Assembly: GCA_964556395.1 (NCBI GenBank)
Contig: CAZKVR010000005.1
Coordinates: 1,470-65,469, forward strand
Direction of reading: 5' to 3'
Length of the DNA: 64,000 nt
DNA from: an uncultured Methanosarcinales archaeon
GTDB lineage: Archaea > Nanobdellota > Nanobdellia > Woesearchaeales > WJKR01
In this document: positions 16,612 through 54,235 of the stretch, piece after piece
Numbering within the stretch: position 1 is the stretch's first letter
Layout of the letters: each line of letters opens with the position of its first letter
The notes under the pieces: model-generated
Told to the model about the DNA's origin: nothing
Database searches by the model: none
What the model saw: only the letters and a program-made list of their open reading frames with translations
Program-made: the position numbers and the translations under genes

Positions 16612-16712
16612 GGGCCTGTAGCTTAGCCTGGATGGAGCGGCGGCCTTCTATAGCCGGCTTGGTGCTGGTTGGAGCGAGCCGCAGGTCGGGGGTTCGAATC
16701 CCCTCAGGCCCG
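16612..16712 (+). tRNA. tRNA-Arg(TCT) with 26-nt intron after position 37
   Basis: Acceptor GGGCCTG/CAGGCCC, D-arm GCTT..GAGC, anticodon stem GCGGC/GCCGC with loop CTTCTA|intron|A, T-arm GGGGG TTCGAAT CCCCT; TATA GGTTTAAATA ~25 nt upstream; oligo-T after 3' end; no encoded CCA. Confidence 0.7.
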
Positions 16713-38456: not shown

Positions 38457-39233
38457 ATGACGCTGCCACCGGAGAAACGACGGTTTTTTCGGAAGCTCTA
38501 CGGCGAGGGCTTGTCGATGCGAGCCATCGCGCGGAGGGAGGAGGTAGCGGTGGCTACGATCAAGAAGTATCTTCTTCTCTCAGGCGTCGAGGTGCGTGAG
38601 AGGAACATCGTCCGACACTTGGTATGTGATGATGAGCGCCTGATAGGGACCTACTGCGGTTTGTGGGCCGGGGATGGCAGCCAGTATTATGACAAGGGCT
38701 ATCGTGTCAAGTTTTGCTTGCATTCGGGGAACAAGGAGCTCATCAAGTTCGTGCAACTGGTGTTGAGGAAGCTTTTCGGCAAAGAGAGCCGGTTCACCCA
38801 TGACCACGGCAAGTACAGCGGCTTTGTCATCTTCAGTTCAAGGTTCATCTTCGAGTTCGTCAAGGAGTACCTGACCTATAAGAGGTACAAGACGAAGACA
38901 GTGAGGTTGAAGAGGGATGTTAACCGATACTCTTTCGCGTTCCTTGAGGGTTTCTTCTTGGGGCTGATGCTTTCTGACGGCCATCTGAGACATAAGGTCC
39001 AGTACAATTCGATCTCAGCCGGACTCATCGCGAACGTCATCGAGGTGTTGTGGCTTTTCGGCATCACCGGACCGTTGAGCATTTCAGACAGGTCCAAGTA
39101 CGGATGGAACGACCTGTTCTGCCTCTCCTTGGGCAAGAAGCAGACGCTCGAGGCGGAGATGCTGCTTGATGAGACCTTGAGGAAGATTGGGTATGGGAAA
39201 CCTTTCAGGGAGCTCAAGGGCGTGTTCAGGTGA
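38457..39233 (+). CDS. LAGLIDADG homing endonuclease with N-terminal HTH
   Basis: Two LAGLIDADG motifs (YCGLWAGDGS, FLGLMLSDGH), N-terminal sigma-70 region-4-like HTH; lower GC and distinct codon usage versus flanks. Confidence 0.7.
   Translation: MTLPPEKRRFFRKLYGEGLSMRAIARREEVAVATIKKYLLLSGVEVRERNIVRHLVCDDERLIGTYCGLWAGDGSQYYDKGYRVKFCLHSGNKELIKFVQLVLRKLFGKESRFTHDHGKYSGFVIFSSRFIFEFVKEYLTYKRYKTKTVRLKRDVNRYSFAFLEGFFLGLMLSDGHLRHKVQYNSISAGLIANVIEVLWLFGITGPLSISDRSKYGWNDLFCLSLGKKQTLEAEMLLDETLRKIGYGKPFRELKGVFR
38457..39233 (+). mobile_element. free-standing homing endonuclease gene insertion
   Basis: Atypical composition, sits between truncated helicase and tRNA pair. Confidence 0.5.
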
Positions 39234-39379: not shown

Positions 39380-39488
39380 ACGCCTCCGGCCGGGTTCGAA
39401 CCGGCGACCTTGCGGTTACGGTCCGCCGCACAGCGATGGTCGCTGCGGGCTGTTAACAGCCGCACGCTCTACCGCTAAGCTACGGAGG
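39380..39488 (-). tRNA. tRNA-Asn(GTT) with 37-nt intron after position 37
   Basis: Acceptor GCCTCCG/CGGAGGC, D-arm GCTT AGCGGTA GAGC, anticodon stem TGCGG/CCGCA, loop CTGTTA|intron 39416-39452|A, T-arm GCCGG TTCGAAC CCGGC. Confidence 0.75.
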
Positions 39489-39679
39489 CTCAACCCCGAT
39501 GGATTGACGGCGCATTTATAAAATTAACTGATGGGTGGTGGTGAGCGGAAACCGTGCGCGTCCGACACCGAGCAGGAGCGACAGCATATAAGCCTGCCGC
39601 TCTCCAGCCTGACACGCGTGAGGAGTTACAAAACGAAACATATATAAAACAGCGGCGTGAGAACAACAGCCTGGTGTGA

Positions 39680-39928
39680 GTGATCATGACAGAAGATATT
39701 TCAAAGAACACGCTGCTTGTCCTCGTCGTACTCACTATCGTCGTCTCCCTCTTGGGGACGTGGACGGTGATCAACGAGGCGAGCAAGGTCCGCGTGGCCG
39801 ACGAGCAAGCGGATGACAACCCCTCCACCACCGGCAAGGTATCCCTCTCCGTCAAAGAGGCTCCGGAGCCGGTCGGCGCGACGGGGCAGGTAGTGCTCAA
39901 CATCATAAACGAAGGAGCGGAGGAATGA
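39680..39928 (+). CDS. small N-terminally anchored pilin-like/secreted protein
   Basis: 82 aa; MIMTEDISKNTLLVLVVLTIVVSLLG hydrophobic N-terminus related to N-termini of 39935, 42290 and 42550 genes. Confidence 0.35.
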   Translation: MIMTEDISKNTLLVLVVLTIVVSLLGTWTVINEASKVRVADEQADDNPSTTGKVSLSVKEAPEPVGATGQVVLNIINEGAEE

Positions 39929-39934
39929 CTAAAA

Positions 39935-40594
39935 ATGGATATTTCTAACAAGACCTTGGCAATGTTCCTGGTGGCAGCGATCGTCGTCTCTATCGCTGGG
40001 ACCACCATCAGCTTGAACAAGCTGGAGACGATGAGGGAAGGACCGACCGGTTATGCGACGTACGATGAGGGTAACGTCAGCCTGACAGTGTCGGACAGCT
40101 TGTCCATCGTGCTTGAGAATGACCGGGACCTTCTCAACTTCGGCTCGTGCCAGCCTCCGGAAGATGGTATAGTCATCGATTCGGACGCGGATTGGGGCGG
40201 TGCAAAACACGACGGCGCTTGTGGAGGTTACTCTGATGAAGGATTCCTCCAACTCCGCAACAACGGCAACATGGACGCGAACGTCACGATGAACGTCACG
40301 GACGCGGGCGAGGCCCATGGCGGTACATTCCTGGAAAGCAATGATGCTTTAGGCTCGTGGATCGCTTACAAGATCGCGAACAACACTGACCACCCTGGCT
40401 GCGTCAGTGGTGCGGCGACGAACTATACGAACATCACCAATGCCGATAGGCAAGATCTCCCTGCATGCGACAACCTCCAAGCAGCCGGGAATGACCACAG
40501 TATGAACCTTTACGCTAAGGTCTATCTGCCTCAGACGACACATATAGGACAGGACGACCTCCAGATAACGTTCTGGGCTCAGGAGGCCTCGTGA
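39935..40594 (+). CDS. N-terminally anchored surface protein, paralog family A
   Basis: 219 aa; MDISNKTLAMFLVAAIVVSIAG anchor; shares NGNMDANVT, GEAHGG, WIAYK, TFWA motifs with 42550 gene; several Cys and N-x-T sequons. Confidence 0.4.
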   Translation: MDISNKTLAMFLVAAIVVSIAGTTISLNKLETMREGPTGYATYDEGNVSLTVSDSLSIVLENDRDLLNFGSCQPPEDGIVIDSDADWGGAKHDGACGGYSDEGFLQLRNNGNMDANVTMNVTDAGEAHGGTFLESNDALGSWIAYKIANNTDHPGCVSGAATNYTNITNADRQDLPACDNLQAAGNDHSMNLYAKVYLPQTTHIGQDDLQITFWAQEAS

Positions 40595-41805
40595 TCAGGA
40601 TGAGATTTTTTTCTTCAATATTTTTCCTCTCTTTCATAGTCCTCTCGATTCCCATAGCGACTGCGATAGGGGTTTCTCCGGCCAAGTACGAGTTGGACTT
40701 CGTGCCTGGGCACGAGCTAGACCTGTCGTTCAGCGTGAGGAACAGCCTCGACCACGAGGTTCCCATAAGCATAAGCCTCAGCGGGAGGTTCGCTGACAAC
40801 GCCACCTTGTCGCAGGAGCAGATATCAGTCCCGGCCAGGAACCATGAGGAGTTCGACCTCAATCTCGCCCTTCCTGAGAGCGTCGACAAGCCTGGCAAGA
40901 ACATCCTTAAGGTGAACATCGTGGAGGATGTCGACAGCTCAGGTATCAGCGCGCGGACGGGCGTCCGCGCCATCGTCGTCGTGCACGTACCCTATCCTGG
41001 GCGGTACGCTGAAATAACCTCGTTCAAGGTCGGCGGCGAGAAGGGCGGTGTGAACGAAGGCCAAAACGCCTCTATGGAGTTTTCGGTCATCAACCGCGGT
41101 AAGGAAGCCTTGGCCGGCACGGAGGCTGAGATGACGCTCTCGCAGGACGGCGAGGCAGTCTTGGAGGAGTCGTTCGGCGACATATCGATGGCTCCTGGCG
41201 AGACGCATACGGGTTCTGCCCGGCTCGACACGTCTTCATTGCCTGCGGGCGCGTATGACGCCCGGCTCGACTATCATTATGATGACGTCACGCGTACTTC
41301 CGAACATAGGTTCCTGGTCGGCTACCTCGACGTTGACCTCTCAAAGCACCCTGAAGTCGTTGAGAAACAGGGTATCGTGAAGTTCCCAATAAGGGTGTCG
41401 AACAAGTGGGGTTCCACCGTCGAGGTGTCAGGACACGTCGAGGTCGGCGGGCAACGCACTGACGAATCATCCGCCGTCCGTCTGGACGCTTTCGAGCAGA
41501 GGGGTTTGACGACCTATCTGGACACGAATGCCATGGATTTCGGTCTTCACGAGGGCGAGGTGGTCTTGCGTTTCGAGCGCGTCGGCAAGTCCGATGACGC
41601 CGACGACCCTCTCAACAAGGAGCACACGAAGCGCGTCCCTGTCACGTTCAACCTCACGGAACCTCGCGAGGCCGTGGAGGAGAGTCCTGGCTTCATCAGC
41701 GAGGGGTCCTTGCTTCCGGTCGTCATCGTGGTGCTCGTCATCCTCCTCTTGGTCAACGGTTTCTTCATGGTCCGCGCCCTGGCGTCGCGGCGCGGGAAGG
41801 AGTGA
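40591..41805 (+). CDS. secreted CARDB-like domain protein with PGF-CTERM-like C-terminal anchor
   Basis: Signal peptide MIRMRFFSSIFFLSFIVLSIPIATA, CARDB-like beta-sandwich segments, C-terminal SPGF...LLPVVIVVLVILLLV...RRGKE. Confidence 0.45.
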   Translation: MIRMRFFSSIFFLSFIVLSIPIATAIGVSPAKYELDFVPGHELDLSFSVRNSLDHEVPISISLSGRFADNATLSQEQISVPARNHEEFDLNLALPESVDKPGKNILKVNIVEDVDSSGISARTGVRAIVVVHVPYPGRYAEITSFKVGGEKGGVNEGQNASMEFSVINRGKEALAGTEAEMTLSQDGEAVLEESFGDISMAPGETHTGSARLDTSSLPAGAYDARLDYHYDDVTRTSEHRFLVGYLDVDLSKHPEVVEKQGIVKFPIRVSNKWGSTVEVSGHVEVGGQRTDESSAVRLDAFEQRGLTTYLDTNAMDFGLHEGEVVLRFERVGKSDDADDPLNKEHTKRVPVTFNLTEPREAVEESPGFISEGSLLPVVIVVLVILLLVNGFFMVRALASRRGKE

Positions 41806-41808
41806 CGC

Positions 41809-42249
41809 ATGATGGCTGGATGGTTCCTTGGTGTGCGGAGTCTCTTCTGGATGGCCGCGGCTTTGGCTGCGGCTCTTCTCGTGTTGGTCGCGCTCGTATG
41901 GATCCTCACTCCAGTGCACACGACGAGTATCGGGACAGAGGTCCAGGTGTCTGACTACGTGGGTTTCAAGCTCGATACCGACAAGCTATACTTCGGCACG
42001 GTCTCCCCTGGCAATGGTGCGACTAGGCGGGCGACGTTGGATATCCCTGACGATTCGTTCGTCATGGTGAGGGTTGAGGGGGAGATGGCCTCGTGGGTGA
42101 CCCCTATCCCTTCGGAAGCGTTGGTTTCGGGCGGCCCACAGGATATCTTTTTCCGGTTGGAGACTCCAGGCGGTGTTGAGCCCGGCAACTACTCGTCGAC
42201 CGTCCGCGTGACCGCTTACAGGCCTGCTGCGCGTTGGTTCTTGGGTTGA
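41809..42249 (+). CDS. N-terminally anchored small surface protein
   Basis: 146 aa, N-terminal TM then beta-rich domain. Confidence 0.3.
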   Translation: MMAGWFLGVRSLFWMAAALAAALLVLVALVWILTPVHTTSIGTEVQVSDYVGFKLDTDKLYFGTVSPGNGATRRATLDIPDDSFVMVRVEGEMASWVTPIPSEALVSGGPQDIFFRLETPGGVEPGNYSSTVRVTAYRPAARWFLG

Positions 42250-42289
42250 GCGCAATCCTTATTAATGAGAGCCGACCGCTACGTCAGGT

Positions 42290-42517
42290 ATGGATTCCCG
42301 TAAGATGATGTTGGTCGTCATCAATGTAGCGTTGGTCATCCTTGTGGTATCGGTCTCGGTCTTGCTGGTGGCGATGCTCGATACGGACGGGTCAGGAGAG
42401 TCTTCTACAGGTGAGGACATTCCTTCGGGACGCATCAGTATCGACGTGGTCTCTCCTAATGCCACTTCTGGTGACGGCAACGCCTCGCTCGTTGATGAGA
42501 CAGACCATAATGCTTAA
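42290..42517 (+). CDS. small pilin-like protein
   Basis: 75 aa; MDSRKMMLVVINVALVILVVSVSVLLVAML then acidic Ser/Gly-rich tail. Confidence 0.3.
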   Translation: MDSRKMMLVVINVALVILVVSVSVLLVAMLDTDGSGESSTGEDIPSGRISIDVVSPNATSGDGNASLVDETDHNA

Positions 42518-42549
42518 ATAGGCGGTGAACGCTGGAGAGTCGTGTAATC

Positions 42550-43194
42550 ATGGATAACAAGCGCGTGTTGGGCGTCATGGCTTTGATGCTGGTAATCTTC
42601 GTGGTTGGCTTCGTGCTCTCCATAGGGTTGTTGCAGCAGGTGGTTGACAGGAGCGATCCTGTGAGCGGCCACGCGACGTCAGACTCCGGTAATATCTCAA
42701 TCACCATATCGACGGGGGTATCGATCACCACGGCTGACGATGGCACTATCAATTTTACCGGCTGCAGCGCGGGCGGCACAATATTCTCTGATGTGGAGAA
42801 CGGTAGCGATGAGGATGTCTGCCCTTCGTTCTTGCCTGACAGTATCCTCGTCCGTAATGATGGGGGCATGGATGCGAACGTCACGTTGCAGGCTTCTGAT
42901 TGGGGTGAGGCTCATGGCGGCTCGTTCTTGGATGCCGCTACTGATGATTCCTGGATCGCTTATAAGGTATCCAACTCGTCTTCGAACTCTTCTTTTTCGG
43001 GCGGTTGCGTCGGCGGCTTCCCTCAGGATTGGACGAACATCACTGATGGTAATGAGACTTTGGTGTGTGATACCTTGCTGCCTGACGGTGTGAACAATAG
43101 CGTTGAGTTCGACGTCGCCATCTTCATCCCGGAGTCTGTCGAGACTGGTGAGAACACGTTGACCTTGACGTTCTGGGCGAGCGCGGTCATTTGA
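42550..43194 (+). CDS. N-terminally anchored surface protein, paralog family A
   Basis: 214 aa; MDNKRVLGVMALMLVIFVVGFVL anchor; shared motifs with 39935 gene. Confidence 0.4.
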   Translation: MDNKRVLGVMALMLVIFVVGFVLSIGLLQQVVDRSDPVSGHATSDSGNISITISTGVSITTADDGTINFTGCSAGGTIFSDVENGSDEDVCPSFLPDSILVRNDGGMDANVTLQASDWGEAHGGSFLDAATDDSWIAYKVSNSSSNSSFSGGCVGGFPQDWTNITDGNETLVCDTLLPDGVNNSVEFDVAIFIPESVETGENTLTLTFWASAVI

Positions 43195-43233
43195 AGGCTT
43201 TCTTGAACGAAAAGCTTTTAATACTTCCTTGGA

Positions 43234-45231
43234 GTGGTATTGCGTATGGATAGGGTGTTGCTGGGTTCCTCCTTGGTGTTCGTCGCGCTCTTGCTCTTGG
43301 GTGGGGGCGTCCTCTTCCTGGAGGGTCAGGATTCGTTGGAGTTCCCGTTCACGGGCCAGGCTACTGATAGCTTCCTCTTCTTGTGCATCAATGATCCTCC
43401 TAGTTTGGAGTTCTCGTGTCCGGATACGATAAACCAGACTACGCGGGTGACTGATAACACGGTGACCTGTCAGTTGAACGCTTCCGATCCTGATAATGAT
43501 TCGTTGGTTCTTTCCGTGGGTCCTGGTAACTTGTCGGAGTGGGCTTGGATCAATGACTCTGGCTGGTTGTGGTTGCGTCCGCGCCAGGATCAGGTCGGTG
43601 TGAATGGTTTGACGGTCTCCGCCCGTGACGCTTCCGGCTGCGCCAACGGCCTCGTCGAGGAGGAGTATGAGCTTACGGTCCTTGACATCAATGATCCTCC
43701 GGAGTATTTCAAGACCATCCCTGATGTCGAGTTCATGCAGGGGAGCAGTTCGTCTCCTTACACGTTGTATGATCACTTCCGGGATCCTGATCGCGACCCG
43801 TTGTCGTTCGAGGTTTTCGGCACTGACGTGGTGTCCGCTTCTGTCAATCCTGATAGTGGTATGGTGAACTTTAGGGCTGATGATGATTGCGGTACTGATT
43901 ACTTGTTGTTCCGGGCGACGGATCCTTTTAATGCTTCTGCTGAGAGCGATGTCGTCCAGGTCAAGGTTATCTGTAAGGAGGATCAGGAGTCCGGCGGTGG
44001 CGGCGGTGGCGGCGGTGGTTCGTTCTCGCCTTGCACTCCGAAGTGGAAGTGTGATGATTGGTCTGAGTGCTTGCCTAATGGTACGCGGTACAAGGAGTGT
44101 ATCGATTTGAATGGTTGTAATCCTAATGATTATGAGCGTACGTTCTGGGAGAACTGCACGTACGTCCCGACTTGTTCTGATGGCATCCAGAACCAGGGTG
44201 AGGAGGGTGTCGATTGCGGCGGGCCGTGCCCGCCTTGCGGTACGTGCTTCGATGGCATCCAGAACAATGATGAGGAGGGTGTCGATTGCGGTGGTGAGTA
44301 TTGCGAGCCTTGTAAGAATTGTTCTGATGGCATCCAGAATTGGGGTGAGACCGGGGTCGACTGCGGCGGGCCGTGCCCGCCTTGTCCTTCATGCTTCGAT
44401 GGCATCCAGAACCAGAATGAGACCGGTATCGATTGCGGCGGGCCGTGCCCGCCTTGCGCTGTCGAGGAGTCTCCCGGGATCGCTGAGGAGCAGTCGAATG
44501 TGACCTTGTTGCTTATGGTGTCGGGCGGTTTCTTGTTGGCCTTGCTCATTCTCTTCCGGTTGTATCACCGTCAGATCGTGAAGGCTGTGGCTCGTCTCGG
44601 CGTCGTGTTGACGCGTCATAAGCGTAAGCAGGTGTTGTTGTCCAAGGCTGAGAAGGAGTCGTTGTTGGCTGGTATCATCTCGTTGGAGGCGAAGCTTGAG
44701 GAGCGTACCGAGCCTGCGAGTTCTCTCTTGGAGTCTCTTACGTTGTTGTCCCGTTCGTTTTTCAGGTTCGCGTTGGACTTGGTGGAGTCGTTCCAGGCTC
44801 CTGACATGGAGGGGGCTTTGAAGGAGCTGGTGAAGCATCGTTCGTTGCGGAAGGTGTTGGAGCGTTTCTTCGTGGTGACGCGGACTGCGGAGCAGGCTGT
44901 TGTCGAGCATTCCTATGTCGAGGTCGAGTTGTTCTTGGAGGAGTTGCGTCTGCTTGTCTTTGAGACCAGCGATGCTTCTGCTGAGGACCTGGTCCATGAG
45001 GCTAAGGAGAAGGATGTTTCCGGTTCGGTGTTGGAGCGTTGTTCGGCGGCGTTCTTCGACGTGTTGTTGGCGTTGGAGTTCGAGGAGTTGGAGTCTGCGC
45101 GTCAGCGGTACGTCCAGCTCGTCGCGGCGTATGAGGAGTTGCCTGAGGGTCGTAAGGCTGAGGTGTACGATCGCGTCGTGCGGGCGTATCATCATCTGAA
45201 GTATGCTTATTCTTGGTCTGATAGGGGTTGA
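43234..45231 (+). CDS. type I membrane protein with cadherin/Ig-like modules, poly-Gly linker, four tandem Cys-rich repeats, TM and ~240-aa cytoplasmic helical tail
   Basis: Signal/TM N-terminus; INDPP motifs; repeat units C[SF]DGIQN..E.G[VI]DCGG.C.PC x4; TM VTLLLMVSGGFLLALLILF; acidic N-glycosylation-sequon-rich ectodomain. Confidence 0.5.
   Translation: MVLRMDRVLLGSSLVFVALLLLGGGVLFLEGQDSLEFPFTGQATDSFLFLCINDPPSLEFSCPDTINQTTRVTDNTVTCQLNASDPDNDSLVLSVGPGNLSEWAWINDSGWLWLRPRQDQVGVNGLTVSARDASGCANGLVEEEYELTVLDINDPPEYFKTIPDVEFMQGSSSSPYTLYDHFRDPDRDPLSFEVFGTDVVSASVNPDSGMVNFRADDDCGTDYLLFRATDPFNASAESDVVQVKVICKEDQESGGGGGGGGGSFSPCTPKWKCDDWSECLPNGTRYKECIDLNGCNPNDYERTFWENCTYVPTCSDGIQNQGEEGVDCGGPCPPCGTCFDGIQNNDEEGVDCGGEYCEPCKNCSDGIQNWGETGVDCGGPCPPCPSCFDGIQNQNETGIDCGGPCPPCAVEESPGIAEEQSNVTLLLMVSGGFLLALLILFRLYHRQIVKAVARLGVVLTRHKRKQVLLSKAEKESLLAGIISLEAKLEERTEPASSLLESLTLLSRSFFRFALDLVESFQAPDMEGALKELVKHRSLRKVLERFFVVTRTAEQAVVEHSYVEVELFLEELRLLVFETSDASAEDLVHEAKEKDVSGSVLERCSAAFFDVLLALEFEELESARQRYVQLVAAYEELPEGRKAEVYDRVVRAYHHLKYAYSWSDRG
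43993..44018 (+). repeat. (GGY)n simple sequence repeat encoding 9 consecutive Gly
   Basis: ggcggtggcggcggtggcggcggtggt within 43234 gene. Confidence 0.6.
44173..44463 (+). repeat. four tandem ~72-75 bp coding repeats (Cys-rich module CxDGIQNxxExGxDCGGxCxPC)
   Basis: Near-identical tgttctgatggcatccagaacc...gattgcggcgggccgtgcccgccttg units; off-frame ORF-track translations (e.g. 44111-44503) show the same periodicity. Confidence 0.75.
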
Positions 45232-45340: not shown

Positions 45341-45355
45341 TTGGTGTGGAAGACC

Positions 45356-45490
45356 GTGGCCAACATCAACATCAGCATCCCAGAAGACCTGCACCGCAAC
45401 CTTAAAATAAGGGCTGCGACAGAAGGCAAGAGTCTGAAAACAGTAGTGCTGGAAGGCCTGAAGAGGAAGCCGCAGAGGAGAAAGGCATGA
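45356..45490 (+). CDS. ribbon-helix-helix (CopG/Arc-like) DNA-binding protein 1 (GTG start)
   Basis: 44 aa; ANINISIPEDLHRNLKIRAATEGKSLKTVVLEGL classic RHH beta-strand + helices; not in ORF track (<60 aa). Confidence 0.6.
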   Translation: MANINISIPEDLHRNLKIRAATEGKSLKTVVLEGLKRKPQRRKA

Positions 45491-45627
45491 CGAACATCAA
45501 CATCAGCATCCCCGACGACCTCCACAAAGAACTCAAAGTAGCCGCCGCCATAGAAGAGAAACCGCTCAAGACAGTGGTAGTAGAGCGATTGGAAGCGCAC
45601 GCAAGGAAGAGAGGTGGCGGCCGATGA
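45487..45627 (+). CDS. ribbon-helix-helix DNA-binding protein 2
   Basis: 46 aa; TNINISIPDDLHKELKVAAAIEEKPLKTVVVERL paralog of RHH-1; ATGA overlaps with both RHH-1 stop and downstream giant gene start. Confidence 0.6.
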   Translation: MTNINISIPDDLHKELKVAAAIEEKPLKTVVVERLEAHARKRGGGR

Positions 45628-48600
45628 ACAAGAACCGCCTGCTAGCGACGCTAGCAGCAGCCCTTGTCATCCTCACACCCCTCCTCACAGGGTTGAGCAT
45701 GGACGAAGGACCCTTCATCGACTCCAAGACCACGACCGAGGACGAGCTCGAGTGCGCCTGGACCGGCTCTCCAGACACGACAAGCCAGAACGCGACGTGG
45801 TACAACGGGAGCACGGTCCACACAGGCCCGAATTCCATCTCATTAAGCCAGAACAAGAGCTCGATACCGTCGTACACCGCGAGGAAAGACGAGAACTGGA
45901 CCTGCGAGGTGACGCTCTCGAACGGCACGGCCACGGAATCTCTCAACACCTCGGTCGTCATCAAGAACGCGTTGCCCACGGCACCGAACGCGACCGACGA
46001 GACGCTCTACGAGGACCAGACCCGAGAGATCAAGGTGGAGAGCACGGACGCCGACAACGACACGATACGATACTCCAAACTATACGAATCAGAACCAGCA
46101 TACTGTGAGATCGGAGAATACACCGGAATTATAACCTGCGACCCCACCGAGAGCGACATCGGAGTCTCCAACGCGACCTGGCTCGCCAGCGACGGCGACT
46201 CGGACTACATCGCGAAAGCGAACGTCACGTACACGGTCATAGAAGTGAACGACCCGCCTACGGCGAGCGTCGAGGACCAGGAAGTGCTGGAAGGGGAGAC
46301 GTTCCGGTACAACATCACCGCCACGGACGAGGAAGACCACTTCCCCATAGACTTCACCGTGGAGAGCAACCTGTCCTCCGTGAACTACACGGTCCTCGAT
46401 GACAACGAGGTGCAGGTCTACCTGGGAGACGACGGGGTTGCGACCTATGCCGATGTGGGCACCTGGTGGATCAGGATCAACATGACGGACAACGGCCCGT
46501 CCTCAAACACACCCTACGATGATCCGAACGGCACCGCCACGTTCAACCTCACCGTCAACAGCACCAACCACGCCCCGAACATCACGACCGACTTCGAGAC
46601 CTACGATCCGGAAGGAGTGCAAGGCGAGGAGTTCGTGTTCGACGTCAACGCGACCGACATCGACGAGACGGACGCGCTCGTCTTCGGCATCACGAGCAAC
46701 TGCAGCCTCTCGAACCCGTGGAGCATCGACACCATCAACGGGAGCGCCTCCAACGCCTCAGGAAGGGTGAACGAGACGCTCACCAACAGCCACGTGGCGT
46801 GCAGGTGGGTGAACGTCACGGTCTCGGACGACGAAGAGACCACATGGGAAGCCGTATTCCTCAACCTGACAAACACGAACGACCAGCCGGCCATCCATGA
46901 GGAGAGCTTCTACTCAAGCAACAACGGCGGCGACAACATGAGCAACCTCACGACGGTGAAGGGACGGGAGTTCTGGTACCGCGTCAACGCGACCGACCCC
47001 GACGAGCTGACCTACGAAGACGAGACCCTCACATTCAGCGACAACAGCACGAACGACATCGCGGTCAACGAGACGACCGGCGTCGTCTCCTTCACGCCCG
47101 ACGACAGCCACATCGGAAACCACGTCATAAGGGTGAACGTGAGCGACGACGACGGCGCGTGGGCGGCCCGCGACCTCCACCTAGAGGTGAAGAACAACAC
47201 CGCCCCCCAACTGCAACCGCTCGGCAACGTCACTTGCAAGCAGGACGAACAATGCGAGGTGTTCGTAGAGGCGTACGACCCGGACCCTGCCGAGAACCTC
47301 GAATTCACGAGCAACAACACAGAGGTCTTCCCGCTCTCAGACTACAACGAGACCGCCCGCGTAGTCGACTACACCCCGACGAACAGCGACGTAGGGACCT
47401 ATAGGGTGAACGTGACCGTCGAGGACAGGTACGGCTTCACGGACGTGGAAGAGTTCACCTTCACCGTCAACAACACGAACGACCCGCCTTCACTACCGGA
47501 AGTCGACTTCGGCACGGTCGTGGCAGACCACCCGGTCAACATGATCGTGGAAGTATCGGACCCTGACGTGGATATCGGATTGGACAACCTCTCCTACAAT
47601 TGGGAGTTCCTCAAGGACGACCAAGGCCTGAACGAGACGTTCGCCTTCATCGACGAGGGGAATTCGTCCTTCACCATAGGCTTCACGCCGGACGCCAGCC
47701 ACGTCGGCACGTACTGGGTCAACCTCTCGGTGACCGACATCGGGAACCTGACCGACTGGGAGAACGTGTCTTTCGAGGTGTTGCCGAAGACCTCGTCGCC
47801 AGAGGTCGAAGGAGTCATGCCGTACTGGAACGCCTCCGCCAACCGGACCGAACTGGACTCGTTCGGCAACGCGTCACTGTTCACTGACCGAACGGTGGCT
47901 GTCAACGTGTCCGAGAACATGAGCGTGGCTTATGATGCTCTCATCACGAACGACACCGGCATCGAGAACAACTCCCTCACGTACGAGTGGTTCGTCGATG
48001 GAGAACCCAATAAGACCTTGACAGGCGTGGAACCGGGCGCGAACTCGTCTATAGAGATCCCGTACGGCTTCTTCGACGCGGGGGACCACGAGGTCGTCGT
48101 GAGGGCGACCGACGAGCGTTATGCGACGGTGAACTGGACGTGGGACGTCACGGTGGCTGACGTCAACAGGCCTCCAGAGCTCCGCAACCCGCTCGACAAC
48201 GTGACGCTGAACACGTCCACGTCGATATCGCATTACATGAGCTACCGTTATGGGAAGGTAGACAACAAGTCCGAACGGCTCCAGCTCTTCTACGACCCTG
48301 ACGACGACCTCGACGGCGACGGCAAGCGAGGAGAGGACACCGGAGAAGGCACCAACCTGTCGTACAGCATCACGCCGGAATACGACTGCTCGGTAGCCTC
48401 TATCTCGCACTCCGGAGACGACCTGGACCTCAAGCCGAAAAAGGAGGGGACGTGCATCATCAAGTTCCGGGCGACGGACCCCGCGGGCGAGTTCGTCGAC
48501 AGCAACAACGTGTGGATCACGGTGACGAGCGTCCAGGTCGAGGAGACCGAGACGCCGGTGAGCTCCGGCGGCGGCGCGACGAGACCCCGTCCGATACCCT

Positions 48601-49310
48601 ATCCTTTCGAGGAGCCTGTGGAGTCGCCTTACCCTATCGAGCTGATAACCCCTGAAGAGGTGTTCTCGTACGTCAACGAGTCTGTCGAGGTGCCATTGTC
48701 ATTGGCGAACACGTGGAACGAGAGCCTCACGGACGTGACGCTCAACGCGACGACGGAGAACTCGTCGAACAACCTCAGCTTCTCGTTCTCGGAGAGCTAT
48801 TTCCCCACCTTGGCGACAGGCGAGAACCATTCGGTCACGCTCACCATAGATGGGTATCGCCAGGAGGGGCCGTTGTCGGTGATAGTGTCGGCGAACGTCG
48901 AGGACCCTGAGTATGAGGATTCCACTACTATCATGATCAACGCGATGGAGCAGAAGCAGTCAGGGGATGATGTGGAGAGCAGGGTGACGTTCGCCCGCGA
49001 CCTGTTGAATGAGAATCCTGAGTGCCAGGAGCTGAACGAGCTGCTCAACGAGGCTGAGAGGAAGCGTCAGCAGCAGGAGTACGACGAGGCTATAAAGCTC
49101 GTCAACACTGCCGTGGACGGTTGCAAGTACCTCGTCAACCACGAGAAGGAACCGACGACAGAGGAGCCCAAGTCATTCTTCACGGTCATGACGTTGGGTC
49201 CTGACCAGTTGCCGGTGCTCATCATAGGTGCGGCCATCATACTCTCGCTGCTCGTGTTCGGGATCATGATGATAATCTCGGGGCGGCGCGGCGGCAAGTA
49301 CGACATCTGA
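45624..49310 (+). CDS. giant (1228 aa) cell-surface adhesin-like protein with multiple cadherin-like repeats and C-terminal TM anchor
   Basis: N-terminal signal/anchor, recurring VNDPP/NDQPA/NHAPN/NDPPS cadherin-type motifs, very acidic, dozens of N-x-[ST] sequons, C-terminal LPVLIIGAAIILSLLVFGIMMIISGRRGGK. Confidence 0.6.
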   Translation: MNKNRLLATLAAALVILTPLLTGLSMDEGPFIDSKTTTEDELECAWTGSPDTTSQNATWYNGSTVHTGPNSISLSQNKSSIPSYTARKDENWTCEVTLSNGTATESLNTSVVIKNALPTAPNATDETLYEDQTREIKVESTDADNDTIRYSKLYESEPAYCEIGEYTGIITCDPTESDIGVSNATWLASDGDSDYIAKANVTYTVIEVNDPPTASVEDQEVLEGETFRYNITATDEEDHFPIDFTVESNLSSVNYTVLDDNEVQVYLGDDGVATYADVGTWWIRINMTDNGPSSNTPYDDPNGTATFNLTVNSTNHAPNITTDFETYDPEGVQGEEFVFDVNATDIDETDALVFGITSNCSLSNPWSIDTINGSASNASGRVNETLTNSHVACRWVNVTVSDDEETTWEAVFLNLTNTNDQPAIHEESFYSSNNGGDNMSNLTTVKGREFWYRVNATDPDELTYEDETLTFSDNSTNDIAVNETTGVVSFTPDDSHIGNHVIRVNVSDDDGAWAARDLHLEVKNNTAPQLQPLGNVTCKQDEQCEVFVEAYDPDPAENLEFTSNNTEVFPLSDYNETARVVDYTPTNSDVGTYRVNVTVEDRYGFTDVEEFTFTVNNTNDPPSLPEVDFGTVVADHPVNMIVEVSDPDVDIGLDNLSYNWEFLKDDQGLNETFAFIDEGNSSFTIGFTPDASHVGTYWVNLSVTDIGNLTDWENVSFEVLPKTSSPEVEGVMPYWNASANRTELDSFGNASLFTDRTVAVNVSENMSVAYDALITNDTGIENNSLTYEWFVDGEPNKTLTGVEPGANSSIEIPYGFFDAGDHEVVVRATDERYATVNWTWDVTVADVNRPPELRNPLDNVTLNTSTSISHYMSYRYGKVDNKSERLQLFYDPDDDLDGDGKRGEDTGEGTNLSYSITPEYDCSVASISHSGDDLDLKPKKEGTCIIKFRATDPAGEFVDSNNVWITVTSVQVEETETPVSSGGGATRPRPIPYPFEEPVESPYPIELITPEEVFSYVNESVEVPLSLANTWNESLTDVTLNATTENSSNNLSFSFSESYFPTLATGENHSVTLTIDGYRQEGPLSVIVSANVEDPEYEDSTTIMINAMEQKQSGDDVESRVTFARDLLNENPECQELNELLNEAERKRQQQEYDEAIKLVNTAVDGCKYLVNHEKEPTTEEPKSFFTVMTLGPDQLPVLIIGAAIILSLLVFGIMMIISGRRGGKYDI

Positions 49311-51340: not shown

Positions 51341-52348
51341 ATGTCTGATCCTTTCGAAGGAATGCAGGCTGAGGATCTGCAAAAAGAGGTGGAGAAGTAT
51401 CAGCGAAAGTTCGCGCTGATCAGGGCTGAGATCGGCAAGGTCGTCGTCGGCCAGGCGCACATCGTGGACTCGCTCATCGAGGCGTTGCTGTGCAACGGCC
51501 ACGTGCTGTTGGAAGGCATCCCAGGATTGGGCAAGACATTGCTGGTGCGTACGTTGTCGAAGATCACCGGCTCGTCGTTCTCCCGTATCCAGTTCACGCC
51601 TGACTTGCTACCCACCGACATCATCGGTATCACGACGTACGAGGAGGGGAAGGGCTTCTACACCGTCAAGGGCCCTATCTTCGCGAACTTCGTCCTGGCG
51701 GATGAGATCAACCGCGCCCCTCCCAAGGTGCAGTCCGCCTTGCTGGAGGGCATGCAGGAGCTCCAAGTCACCATCGGCAAGGAGACTTTCAGGTTGCCGT
51801 TTCCGTTCTTCGTCATGGCGACCGAGAACCCGGTGGAGCAGCTCGGCACGTATAAGCTTCCCGAGGCGCAGCTCGACCGCTTCTTGTTCAAGCTCAACAT
51901 GGTGTACCCGACGTTCGAGGAGGAGCTGAAGATATTGACGCAGAACATCACGACGAGCCAGTTCGACGACTACAACCTCTCGCCGGTATTGTCGCCTGAG
52001 GAGATAATCCGTGCGCAGCACCTCGTCAAGCACATCCGCCTGGATGAGAAGATCGAGAAGTACCTCGTCCGCATCGTCGAGGCTACGAGGAAGCCTGACA
52101 AGTACGACCTCGAGATGGGCAAGTACGTCAGCTTCGGTAGCTCTCCCCGTTCGAGCATCGCGTTGTTCATAGCTTCCAAGGCGCACGCCATCATGAGGGG
52201 TAGCAGCGTGGTGACGCCGAGCGATGTCAAGGCGGTGGCGCACAACGTGCTGCGTCATCGTATCATCCTCAACTTCGAGGGGCAGGCTGAGGAGATCGGC
52301 ACGGATCCCATCATCGATGAGATCCTGAAGAAGGTCCCTATAGTGTGA
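51341..52348 (+). CDS. MoxR-family AAA+ ATPase
   Basis: VVVGQAHIVDSLIEALLCNGHVLLEGIPGLGKT Walker A region and MoxR-specific spacing. Confidence 0.9.
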   Translation: MSDPFEGMQAEDLQKEVEKYQRKFALIRAEIGKVVVGQAHIVDSLIEALLCNGHVLLEGIPGLGKTLLVRTLSKITGSSFSRIQFTPDLLPTDIIGITTYEEGKGFYTVKGPIFANFVLADEINRAPPKVQSALLEGMQELQVTIGKETFRLPFPFFVMATENPVEQLGTYKLPEAQLDRFLFKLNMVYPTFEEELKILTQNITTSQFDDYNLSPVLSPEEIIRAQHLVKHIRLDEKIEKYLVRIVEATRKPDKYDLEMGKYVSFGSSPRSSIALFIASKAHAIMRGSSVVTPSDVKAVAHNVLRHRIILNFEGQAEEIGTDPIIDEILKKVPIV

Positions 52349-52366
52349 GGGGCTGGTGGTTTTCAG

Positions 52367-53269
52367 ATGGGTGTCAAGGATTTACGCGTTGAACTCACGC
52401 CGCATATCCGTAACGCGGAGATCTTCGCGAAGCGTTCCGTCCTGTCCAAGACCATCACGGGAAATTGGGTGACGAGCTATAAGGGTCGCGGCATCGAGTT
52501 CGCCGGCTACAGGTCTTACCAGTTCGGTGACGACGCCTCCCTGATCGACTGGAGGGCTTCGTTGCGTGCCAAGGAGCCCATGGTGCGGGAGTTCGAGGAG
52601 TACAAGAGCTTTTCCGTGTTCATATTGCTCGACGTCTCGAACAGCATGCTGTTCTCCTCTAACAAGAAGCTGAAGGCGGAGTACGCGGCTGAGATGGCGT
52701 ACGCGTTGGGCGAAGGTATCCTGCGCGGCGGCGACGCCGTCGGACTCGGCATGTTCACGGACGAGCTGAAGGCGAGCCTCCATCCGAACATCGGCCATGG
52801 CGTGCTGGATCGCTTCGCGCAGCACCTCAAGGATCCTTCGATGTATGGCGGGAAGTTCGACCTGCAGCGGGTGTTGAAGCAGACGGTGTCGTTCCTGCAG
52901 AACAACGCTATCATCATAGTCATCTCCGACTTCCTCGGGTTGCAGGAGGGGTGGCAGCGGTACGTGCGTATGGTGTCGCAGAACTTCGAGATGATCGGCC
53001 TCATGGTCCGCGACCCCCGCGACAGGGAGTTGCCGCGGCACGTCGGCCAGTACGCGTTGGAGGATCCTTATTCCGACAATACGTTGTACATCGATGTGAA
53101 TGATTTCGCAAAACCCTACAAGCGCTTCGTCGAGGAGGAGGAGCGCAGGATTATGAACGTGTTCGAGAGCGTGAAGGGCGGGATGGCGCTCATCACGACC
53201 GACAAGGATTATCTGGCGCCGCTCACCAAGTTCCTGCGGCAGAGGAAGTTCATCACCATGACGACGTGA
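52367..53269 (+). CDS. DUF58 domain protein (MoxR partner)
   Basis: Canonical position after MoxR; DUF58 ILLDVSNSM degenerate vWA-like motif. Confidence 0.7.
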   Translation: MGVKDLRVELTPHIRNAEIFAKRSVLSKTITGNWVTSYKGRGIEFAGYRSYQFGDDASLIDWRASLRAKEPMVREFEEYKSFSVFILLDVSNSMLFSSNKKLKAEYAAEMAYALGEGILRGGDAVGLGMFTDELKASLHPNIGHGVLDRFAQHLKDPSMYGGKFDLQRVLKQTVSFLQNNAIIIVISDFLGLQEGWQRYVRMVSQNFEMIGLMVRDPRDRELPRHVGQYALEDPYSDNTLYIDVNDFAKPYKRFVEEEERRIMNVFESVKGGMALITTDKDYLAPLTKFLRQRKFITMTT

Positions 53270-53275
53270 AACAAC

Positions 53276-54235
53276 ATGCACCTGACGTTCGAGAACCCTA
53301 TCTATCTCTGGTACCTGGCCAGTATCCCCTTGCTGGTCCTCACCCACTTCCTCTCTTTACGGATGGCGAAGCGGAAGGCGATGCGGTTCGCGAACTTCCA
53401 GACGTTGAAGCGTATCGCAGGTGAGAGGATGGTGACTAAGAATGTCAGCGTGCTCATCTTCCGAGTCCTCACCGTGGCGTTGCTCGTGTTGGCGGCTTCC
53501 GGTGTCAGGTTGTGGTACATGGCTCCGCAGAGCGATAACAACTATGTCATCGGGCTTGACGTGTCTTCTTCGATGTCGGCTAAGGATTTTTTGCCTGACC
53601 GTCTCGAGACGGCCAAGTCTTATGCTAAGGATTTCGTCGACACGTTGGGCGGCAAGACCAAGGTGGGGGTGGTGTCTTTCGCGGGTGTGAGCATGATCGA
53701 GCAGACCTTGACCGAGGATAAGACTGCTGTCAAGTCTTCGATAGATAGTATCAGTTTGACGAGGACTGGCGGTACTGACATGCCAGGAGCCCTCATTACT
53801 GGCACGAACATCCTCTTGTCCGAGCCTGACAATGGGAGGGTGATGATTCTGTTTACGGATGGCAGCTCGACGCTAGGTAATTTCGTCGGTGATTCCATGC
53901 GCGAGGCGGTCGAGTATGCGCGTGAGAACAAGGTCGTGGTGAACGGCGTCGGTATCGGCACCGAGAGCGCTCCTATCGGCTACTTGCCCGAGTATTATAA
54001 CATCTCGTCGGTGTTCGCCTTGGATGATCTGCGTTTCGTGACCAACCGTACGTCAGGCGTGACTATCCCTGCGAGCGAGGAGCAGGACTTGGAGGCCGCT
54101 TACGTCGACTTGTTGAAGCGTTCTGATGAGAGCCTCGTGGATGTGCGGCTCGACCTCATGGCGTTGGTGGCCGGCTTGCTCTTGCTGTTCATCGAGTGGG
54201 GGCTCATCAATTCTCGTTATAGGAGGGTTGCGTGA
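53276..54235 (+). CDS. von Willebrand factor A domain membrane protein (BatA-like)
   Basis: Two N-terminal TMs, vWA MIDAS motif VIGLDVSSSMSAKD, C-terminal TM. Confidence 0.75.
   Translation: MHLTFENPIYLWYLASIPLLVLTHFLSLRMAKRKAMRFANFQTLKRIAGERMVTKNVSVLIFRVLTVALLVLAASGVRLWYMAPQSDNNYVIGLDVSSSMSAKDFLPDRLETAKSYAKDFVDTLGGKTKVGVVSFAGVSMIEQTLTEDKTAVKSSIDSISLTRTGGTDMPGALITGTNILLSEPDNGRVMILFTDGSSTLGNFVGDSMREAVEYARENKVVVNGVGIGTESAPIGYLPEYYNISSVFALDDLRFVTNRTSGVTIPASEEQDLEAAYVDLLKRSDESLVDVRLDLMALVAGLLLLFIEWGLINSRYRRVA

Follow-up and report, generated by a model that had tools for sequence, protein, structure and literature searches.

An old array of a widespread, uncurated cysteine-rich mini-module in a predicted surface protein of Woesearchaeota

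The window analyzed here (64,000 nucleotides; positions 1,470 to 65,469 of contig CAZKVR010000005.1, assembly GCA_964556395.1, a Candidatus Woesearchaeota metagenome-assembled genome placed by GTDB in the Woesearchaeales) contains a gene for a 661-amino-acid (aa) protein whose ectodomain carries four tandem, in-frame, Cys-rich units at 44173-44463. The unit is without a curated name within Pfam-A, NCBIfam, and the PDB and would be a new family among the small extracellular Cys-rich repeats, a familiar class. Far from being peculiar to this gene, it is widely distributed among secreted bacterial and archaeal proteins, and the array is old and conserved by position, not a recent local expansion. 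Our overall best reading, to which we give a probability of roughly 60%, is that an old array of this uncurated mini-module, stabilized by disulfides and probably by Ca2+, forms a membrane-proximal stalk.

Anatomy of the unit

A preliminary description of the window had reported four tandem coding units with the motif CxDGIQNxxExGxDCGGxCxPC; their exact in-frame coordinates were reproduced (Table 1), and the motif is correct as written. The number of Cys residues per unit, given earlier as five to six invariant ones, is exactly four (C1 to C4), and the full unit pattern is C-x-D-G-[IV]-[QK]-N-x-x-E-x-G-[VI]-D-C-G-G-x(1,2)-C-x-x-C. Nor are the repeats near perfect at the nucleotide level, where the units are only 64-86% identical (64-82% in pairwise comparison over 24 codon columns and 70-86% over a 22-codon core), with a mean column identity of 79%. 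With Tandem Repeats Finder (TRF), an array of period 72 is detected at 44179-44456 (3.8 copies, 72% matches, score 271), as is a double unit of period 147 (1.8 copies, 83% matches, score 394). The codon pattern for D-C-G-G is present at five places in the window, compared to 0.91 expected, and four of the five are within the array.

Unit statistics were compiled from 785-1187 distinct units in 240-380 proteins. C1 is followed by D-C-G-G after exactly 12 residues at 883 of 932 D-C-G-G sites, C3 lies 1-2 residues after D-C-G-G and C4 2 residues further, and the linker between C4 and the next C1 has 2 residues in 269 of 363 unit junctions. Counted from C1, conservation is 57% for Q6, 91% for N7, 76% for G12, and 100% for E10, which is invariant though not imposed by the search pattern; D14 is also invariant. 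Covariation is strongest between positions 3 and 7 (mutual information with average product correction [MI-APC], 0.40), with D/N in 1039, N/D in 123, D/D in 4, and N/N in 3 of the 1187 distinct units. The pattern by which we define the repeat family (C1, 12 residues, D-C-G-G, C3, C4, E10, and Asp plus Asn at positions 3 and 7) is found in all four window units.

Single-unit orthologs (P0192) keep exactly four Cys, which argues that the unit is autonomous. A protein of Bacteroidota type (P0353) contains, in about a dozen copies, a variant repeat of 43 aa that lacks C2 (D-[IVT]-G-G) and has C3 and C4 one or two residues apart (C3-G-C4), followed by a conserved HNY[DN]P.A extension. The loss of C2 and the C3-G-C4 spacing in this variant argue against a C3-C4 bond, the only pairing that natural Cys-loss variants exclude. 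The loop between N7 and E10 takes insertions of 7-13 residues in P0130, P0133, P0151, and P0197. In P0130, P0133, P0197, and P0184, a 13-residue insertion with two extra Cys at this place (e.g., DGVQN-CHFILLDNGSWDQC-ETGVDCGG) looks like a mini-loop nested within the unit.

Searches for a named family or fold

The preliminary description did not recognize the module as a named domain, and our searches of Pfam-A, NCBIfam, and the PDB agree. When the whole protein was scanned against Pfam-A (hmmscan, E ≤ 10), only Big_9 and Cadherin_4 were found, and nothing matched the Cys region; Pfam-A also gave no Cys-repeat family at E ≤ 1 in relatives with 5-14 units and no repeat family at E ≤ 0.001 in further multi-unit relatives. 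Neither the protein nor its multi-unit relatives matched LDL-receptor class A, EGF-like, thrombospondin type 3 (PF02412), or Myxococcus cysteine-rich repeat models in Pfam-A or NCBIfam. For the unit, NCBIfam gave sub-threshold noise only. With the NF033662 model, whose curated cutoff is 41 bits, a fragment from the window scored 7.1 bits (E = 4.7) and P0010 scored 14.2 bits (E = 0.026), while P0001, P0181, P0246, and P0258, which have 5-9 units, had no match. A profile of 78 diverse units, run against PDB sequences, gave nothing at E ≤ 10, and the literature on Woesearchaeota and DPANN cysteine-rich proteins and on D-C-G-G motif strings yielded no description of the unit.

Structure prediction, as suggested earlier, gave confident units and a less confident whole. 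The AlphaFold2 model of the Cys region (aa 256-409, from a 29-sequence alignment) has a mean predicted local distance difference test score (pLDDT) of 79.8 and a predicted template-modeling score (pTM) of 0.42. The units are irregular, with tiny bridges, and are locally confident (pLDDT, 75-86); the low pTM together with good local pLDDT is what beads on a string would give. Foldseek comparison of the model with the PDB returned no fold with E < 0.4.

Distribution in bacteria, archaea, and viruses

The Cys region had 914 matches in a word-indexed search, and exhaustive comparison by phmmer with 1.84 billion cluster representatives retrieved 4,741 proteins at E ≤ 0.001, including 1,899 at E ≤ 1e-10. 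Clusters carrying the unit belong to Bacteroidota, Myxococcota, DPANN, Altiarchaeota, and a few viral contigs. In GTDB species genomes, at least 458 loci with the unit were confirmed. Among the matches listed, the archaea are Woesearchaeota, Nanoarchaeota, Nanohaloarchaea, and Altiarchaeota; the bacteria include Saprospiraceae, Flavobacteriales, Polyangiaceae, Sandaracinus, and Bradymonadales; and the cultured strains include Flammeovirga aprica, Aquimarina, and Minicystis rosea DSM 24000. In IMG/VR, 26 viral contigs (L086-L111) encode 1-3 units each. Four units also form the C terminus of a 229-aa protein in the EukProt “Awhi” transcriptome set (P0029), which may be a genuine eukaryotic gene or prokaryotic contamination.

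Two settings recur in bacteria. Units are found in small lipoproteins with DUF6252, and arrays of 2 to ∼35 units separate catalytic or binding domains from the C-terminal sorting domain of the type IX secretion system (T9SS). Partner domains of these arrays include endonuclease I, M12B and M43 peptidases, DUF11, fn3, CBM96, and RCC1. The longest array, in the Bacteroidota protein P0241, has ∼35 nearly identical copies of the unit.

A predicted membrane-proximal stalk

The units lie inside the ectodomain, as previously described, between the N-terminal hydrophobic signal or anchor segment and a transmembrane (TM) helix at ∼aa 419-438. All 11 N-x-S/T sequons are N-terminal of the TM helix and none is in the tail, while K/R-rich residues follow the helix; this favors a type I topology with the Cys-rich region predicted to be extracellular. 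An extracytoplasmic location is also suggested by the N-terminal hydrophobic segment and by the lipoprotein and T9SS cargo settings in bacteria. From the N to the C terminus, the domain order is hydrophobic segment, Ig/cadherin-like pair, Gly9 run, six-Cys block, four units, TM helix, and helical tail.

We propose that each unit is an autonomous knot with two disulfides inside the module and that it probably binds one Ca2+, for which the coupled Asp/Asn residues at positions 3 and 7, Glu10, and Asp14 are candidate ligands; the invariance of E10 and D14 and the strict D/N swap at positions 3 and 7 point to such a cation site. Arranged head to tail with 2-residue linkers, the units would form a thin, protease-resistant, semirigid rod. 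Together with the six-Cys, three-stranded block, which resembles a thrombospondin type 1 repeat (TSR), and a Gly9 hinge, this rod would form a membrane-proximal stalk that holds two cadherin/Ig-like head domains off the membrane, and the single TM helix would join the stalk to a conserved helical cytoplasmic domain. Of this picture, the anatomy, conservation, distribution, and topology indicators are shown, as is the absence of the unit from the curated libraries, whereas the pairing of the disulfides, the binding of Ca2+, and the role as a stalk are predictions. The suggestion in the preliminary description of a disulfide- or metal-stabilized mini-domain remains a reasonable one.

Three observations favor a stalk or linker role. 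First, the placement of units in bacterial multidomain proteins is linker-like. Second, units are traded for TSR-like blocks in the archaeal family at a roughly constant length (∼640-690 aa): one TSR-like block is combined with four units in 40 orthologs, and two blocks with one unit in 9. Third, the AlphaFold2 model of the Cys region combines a low pTM with good local pLDDT.

Several points weigh against this reading. The unit may have a name outside Pfam, NCBIfam, and the PDB. AlphaFold models carry no ions, and the cation site is putative. Woesearchaeota are generally thought to be anaerobes, in which extracellular disulfides are less secure. Some concerted evolution does occur at the DNA level, as identical residues in different units have the same codon in 82 of 105 cases, compared to ∼56 expected from genome codon usage. 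Finally, near-total conservation of residues across domains of life exceeds the need of a passive spacer and could reflect a ligand-binding role.

Such a role would make the unit an adhesive repeat whose conserved Q-N-x-x-E-T-G surface binds a glycan or a partner protein, perhaps via a cation, and would make the array a multivalent adhesin for attachment to a host or substrate. The very high conservation of surface positions 6, 7, 10, and 12 across bacteria and archaea is consistent with this, as are the promiscuous fusion of units to hydrolases and CBM-type domains, which recalls carbohydrate-binding modules, the presence of units in a few viral contigs, and their position beside cadherin-like domains in a DPANN surface protein. 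We nevertheless consider adhesive binding unlikely. Nearly every residue is structural in so small a module, and conservation alone is no sign of a ligand; moreover, the N7-E10 loop tolerates the insertions described above, and membrane-proximal placement favors a stalk.

Alternatively, the Cys residues could bind a metal cluster. Zn2+ or Fe-S would be held by the four Cys of each unit, or by C2 to C4 with C1 of the next unit (C-x3-C-x2-C-x2-C), and the array would be a metal-binding or redox-active surface wire. This spacing is found across unit junctions and resembles a reversed ferredoxin-type motif, and surface thiols could remain reduced in a DPANN host of anaerobic type. A metal cluster is nonetheless improbable for four reasons. 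Single-unit orthologs and terminal units have just C1 to C4, so that a cluster formed across junctions would lack some of its Cys at either end. The module is often found in T9SS and lipoprotein settings of Bacteroidota from oxic habitats (Saprospiraceae, Flammeovirga, and Aquimarina), and the P0353 variant dispenses with C2 and has C-G-C. Lastly, the non-Cys invariants are acidic or amide residues (D/N, N/D, E, and D), which are typical of Ca2+ sites and not of Zn or Fe-S sites.

Age of the array

A whole-protein search found >100 full-length relatives, named “hypothetical protein,” in Woesearchaeota, Nanoarchaeota, and Nanobdellota, down to ∼28% identity. In 78 relatives of 590-730 aa, the number of D-C-G-G units is four in 46, three in 9, two in 9, and one in 14. 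The best match of a unit in another ortholog is at the same array position for 144 of 168 units. Signatures by position are evident in 29 aligned four-unit orthologs (unit 2, NNDEE..DCGGxYCE; unit 3, NW/NY-GE) and persist down to ∼50% identity in the Cys region. The NN-x-EE of unit 2 is kept in the aligned orthologs, with the extra residue after DCGG present in most of the 29, and the aromatic residue at position 8 of unit 3 is likewise conserved.

For comparison at the DNA level, we used three orthologs with 84%, 56%, and 53% protein identity (L003, L004, and L005, respectively), all of which have four units. Unit 2 is 91, 83, and 83% identical to the orthologous units but only 70-79% identical to units 1, 3, and 4 beside it, and unit 4 is 85, 85, and 86% identical to its orthologous units. 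In general, orthologous units in these genomes match at least as well as paralogous units within the gene. The similarity of orthologous units, equal to or greater than that of paralogous ones, indicates that the DNA repeat is mostly a by-product of extreme amino acid conservation and codon bias, with at most short gene conversion tracts. Such tracts on an old array are suggested by the sequence GGCGGGCCGTGCCCGCCTTG shared by units 1, 3, and 4, which is replaced by CCTTGTCC variants in the corresponding three units of the 84% ortholog.

The preliminary description had instead inferred recent expansion with potential for copy number variation. No such variation was seen among close relatives, as two independent assemblies and the 84% ortholog all have four units. 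The corresponding explanation, a contingency locus in which units were duplicated lately and vary in number by slippage or recombination, draws on the repeat detectable by TRF, the excess same-codon use, the GGCGGGCCGTGCCCGCCTTG and CCTTGTCC pattern, the near-identical copies in P0241, and copy numbers of 4, 3, 2, or 1 across the wider family, but it is very improbable and, for this gene, largely refuted by the position-specific signatures, the same-position matches, the closeness of unit 2 to its orthologs, and the constant four units in the two assemblies and the 84%, 56%, and 53% orthologs.

A palindrome, GGCGGGC-CGT-GCCCGCC (GGCGGGCCGTGCCCGCC), occurs in units 1, 3, and 4 and was flagged once by the terminator scan. 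It was rejected as a terminator or regulatory element, being inside the ORF, consisting simply of G-G-P-C-P-P codons, and missing from the 84% ortholog (L003). It is probably incidental, although it might favor local gene conversion.

Gene product and flanking domains

An identical 661-aa protein is encoded in assembly GCA_046543035.1 (contig JBKHAD010000012.1) and in a Logan contig from SRR11308339. Its NCBI name is “hypothetical protein [Candidatus Woesearchaeota archaeon],” and it is a member of a conserved Woesearchaeota/Nanoarchaeota family without a name. The mechanically called ORF does begin with GTG at 43234, as in the preliminary description, but ATG at 43246 is the more likely gene start, since gene callers chose it in two assemblies and a TATA-like sequence, TTTTAATA, lies upstream. 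This sequence is a candidate archaeal promoter of the gene. In numbering from the GTG, Big_9 matches aa 63-137 (E = 5.5e-08, above the gathering score) and Cadherin_4 matches aa 147-216 (E = 1.4e-04, just under the gathering score); the NCBIfam tandem-95 repeat model also matches the protein, under its cutoff (E = 3.9e-06).

Table 1 Coordinates of features in the window
Feature	Position	Strand	Basis or remark
Gene for 661-aa protein, predicted type I surface membrane protein	43246..45231	+	ORF; identical protein called on two assemblies
Candidate TATA-like box TTTTAATA	43216..43223	+	Read in sequence; 23-30 nt upstream of ATG 43246
N-terminal hydrophobic segment LLGSSLVFVALLLLGGGVLFLE, putative signal peptide or anchor	43258..43323	+	Inferred from translation
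Two Ig/cadherin-like domains (Big_9, Cadherin_4), distal ectodomain “head”	43420..43881	+	Pfam
Gly9 run, putative hinge; perfect 3 × 9-bp repeat CGGCGGTGG	43993..44019	+	TRF, 9-bp period, 3 copies, 100%
Six-Cys Trp-rich block	44032..44157	+	29-ortholog alignment and AlphaFold model; ∼45-50 aa
Unit 1 CSDGIQNQGEEGVDCGGPCPPCGT	44173-44244	+	In frame, 24 aa
Unit 2 CFDGIQNNDEEGVDCGGEYCEPCKN	44245-44319	+	In frame, 25 aa; one-residue insertion after DCGG
Unit 3 CSDGIQNWGETGVDCGGPCPPCPS	44320-44391	+	In frame, 24 aa; aromatic at position 8
Unit 4 CFDGIQNQNETGIDCGGPCPPCAV	44392-44463	+	In frame, 24 aa
Palindrome GGCGGGCCGTGCCCGCC	44218-44234, 44365-44381, 44437-44453	+	G-G-P-C-P-P codons
TM helix LLLMVSGGFLLALLILFRLY, then K/R-rich stretch	44500..44559	+	Hydrophobic-window scan of the family; helix in model
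Conserved, predicted cytoplasmic all-helical domain, ∼220 aa	44560..45228	+	AlphaFold pLDDT 91.8, pTM 0.83
Six proteins with N-terminal hydrophobic segments	39680-43194	+	82, 219, 404, 146, 75, and 214 aa
Two tiny overlapping ORFs	45341-45490, 45487-45627	+	49 and 46 aa
1228-aa protein	45624-49310	+	Big_9/cadherin-like/Ig-like domains
MoxR-type AAA ATPase, DUF58 protein, BatA/VWA protein	51341-54235	+	
Long tRNA match	16612-16712	+	101 nt
LAGLIDADG-type ORF	38457-39233		Weak match
Long tRNA match	39381-39489	-	109 nt

The upstream Cys-rich block and the simple repeat encoding nine Gly residues, both noted earlier, are present. In orthologs, the place of Gly9 is taken by G9, (GS)n, or mixed Gly/Ser runs. 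The block follows the pattern C-x3-W-x-C-x2-W-S-x-C-x2-N-G-T-x-x-[KR]-x-C-x-D-x-N-x-C ... W-x-x-C. Across the 29 orthologs, C8, C14, C20, C30, C36, and C49 are invariant and W12, W17, N23, D32, and W46 nearly so. In the AlphaFold model, strands at 12-14, 25-32, and 42-48 form a three-stranded sheet (pLDDT, 82-92). Weak Foldseek matches of the Cys region to TSR-containing chains (complement C8/C9, Unc5A, and midkine/pleiotrophin; E of 0.46-0.77 and probability of 0.16-0.77) are not significant, and we ascribe them to this block rather than to the units. As modeled, the block resembles a TSR; Pfam TSP_1 (PF00090) has no match in the 661-aa protein.

The tail has the conserved motifs RKQ[IV]LL after the TM helix, EELR..V..TS, and HN..LALQF.E...AK..Y. 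No Pfam family matched this domain, and Foldseek found no PDB fold with E < 0.5. Its weak Foldseek matches were to PhoU-like proteins, prophage protein HepS, and a small Sulfolobus chain (2q00), the last two of which we take to be HEPN-type folds. A HEPN reading of the tail was rejected, as the HEPN-type R-x5-H near the C terminus is not conserved in orthologs.

Locus context

The gene cluster around the 661-aa protein gene is syntenic in three Woesearchaeota genomes. Its order is six proteins with hydrophobic N termini, the gene itself, one or two tiny ORFs of ribbon-helix-helix (RHH) type, a membrane protein of 1228-1250 aa with cadherin/Ig-like domains, a 411-549-aa protein on the opposite strand, and then MoxR-DUF58-BatA/VWA. 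The cluster looks like a surface structure or attachment locus.

The six small to medium proteins directly upstream have counterparts at 5517-9864 in L004 and 5529-9957 in L005, and none matched a Pfam or NCBIfam family. Two of them, of 219 and 214 aa, are paralogs with 35% identity (E = 4e-35), and the 404-aa protein has weak Ig-like/CARDB-type matches and a C-terminal TM segment. These six proteins could be subunits of a surface fiber or envelope structure. Downstream, the 1228-aa protein combines several Big_9/cadherin-like/Ig-like domains with very many N-x-S/T sequons, a C-terminal TM segment, and a short tail, and it is kept in this place in L004 (1230 aa) and L005 (1250 aa). Between the two large surface protein genes, the tiny ORFs, which are alike (NINISIP[ED]DLH..LK..AA.E.K.LK.VV.E.L) and conserved in L004 and L005, show faint or weak matches to RHH families (FitA-like and ParD) and could encode small regulators of the locus. 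The MoxR-DUF58-BatA/VWA arrangement is the same in L004 and L005.

Elsewhere in the window, two tRNA matches are long relative to the 71-position model and are presumably intron-containing tRNA genes of archaeal type. ARAGORN missed the one at 39381-39489, which has a LAGLIDADG-type ORF nearby.

Implications

Woesearchaeota are presumed symbionts, and nothing in their biology is less understood than the proteins for attachment at the cell surface. A bolder and rather doubtful proposal concerns the unit together with its locus. The unit would be an undescribed Ca2+-dependent double-disulfide mini-fold without structural relatives that Bacteroidota, Myxococcota, Altiarchaeota, DPANN archaea, and some of their viruses have in common, probably through horizontal transfer. 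In Woesearchaeota, it would form the stalk, spanning the cell envelope, of a conserved transmembrane adhesin whose novel helical cytoplasmic domain links contact with a host or substrate to the inside of the cell, within a syntenic attachment apparatus comprising small secreted paralogs, the 1228-aa cadherin-like protein, and MoxR-DUF58-BatA.

If the stalk reading is correct, the unit would represent a new and very compact (∼24 aa) family of extracellular Cys-rich repeats with a sharply defined signature, in which the Asp/Asn swap at positions 3 and 7 would point to a specific ion or hydrogen bond site. At least 4,741 protein clusters, among which T9SS cargo enzymes of Bacteroidota are numerous, could then have blank segments labeled, and a handle would be gained on a conserved, uncharacterized surface protein and gene cluster of Woesearchaeota. 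No general principle would change, as small disulfide-rich stalk repeats are a familiar design. The main value is in a candidate domain family that could be curated and whose covariation signal is clean, and in a marker of an uncharacterized DPANN surface locus.

Comparison with known modules

The NCBIfam “acidic double-disulfide repeat” (NF033662) is, by its name, a short acidic two-disulfide repeat and is the sole curated repeat model that aligns to the unit (profile positions 5-22 of 32). With scores far below its cutoff, this is resemblance at the level of motif, not membership. The six-Cys block can be compared with TSR (PF00090) and the TSR-like domains of midkine and pleiotrophin, with which it would share a three-stranded, disulfide-stapled mini-sheet containing Trp and Arg/Lys (W..W..C...G...R.C); the Trp spacing is W-x4-W in the block, in contrast to W-x2-W in TSR.

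The LDL-receptor class A (PF00057) and thrombospondin type 3 (PF02412) repeats are compact disulfide-bonded repeats whose fold needs Ca2+ caged by an acidic cluster. Like the units, they are arranged in tandem arrays as extended ectodomain segments, but they differ in length, Cys number, and spacing, show no sequence or fold match, and bind Ca2+, which in the unit is only predicted.

The Lin-12/Notch repeat (LNR; PF00066), found in Notch and pappalysin-1, offers a further parallel. LNRs are stabilized by disulfides and by Ca2+ bound by Asp/Asn, and LNR, LDL-receptor class A, and thrombospondin type 3 modules are too small to fold without disulfides and Ca2+. The LNR has six Cys (three disulfides) with another spacing, ∼35 aa, and a DGGDC signature, in contrast to the four Cys, 24-25 aa, and D-C-G-G-x-C-x-x-C of the unit, and the PF00066 profile has no match in the 661-aa protein in Pfam-A at E ≤ 10. 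Nevertheless, both modules are extracellular, Cys-rich, very small, and devoid of a hydrophobic core, and both are found in short tandem arrays near the membrane. The conserved D/N3, N/D7, E10, and D14 of the unit are compatible with LNR-type Ca2+ coordination, and M43 (pappalysin-type) peptidases of Bacteroidota carry arrays of the window-type unit, just as PAPP-A carries LNRs.

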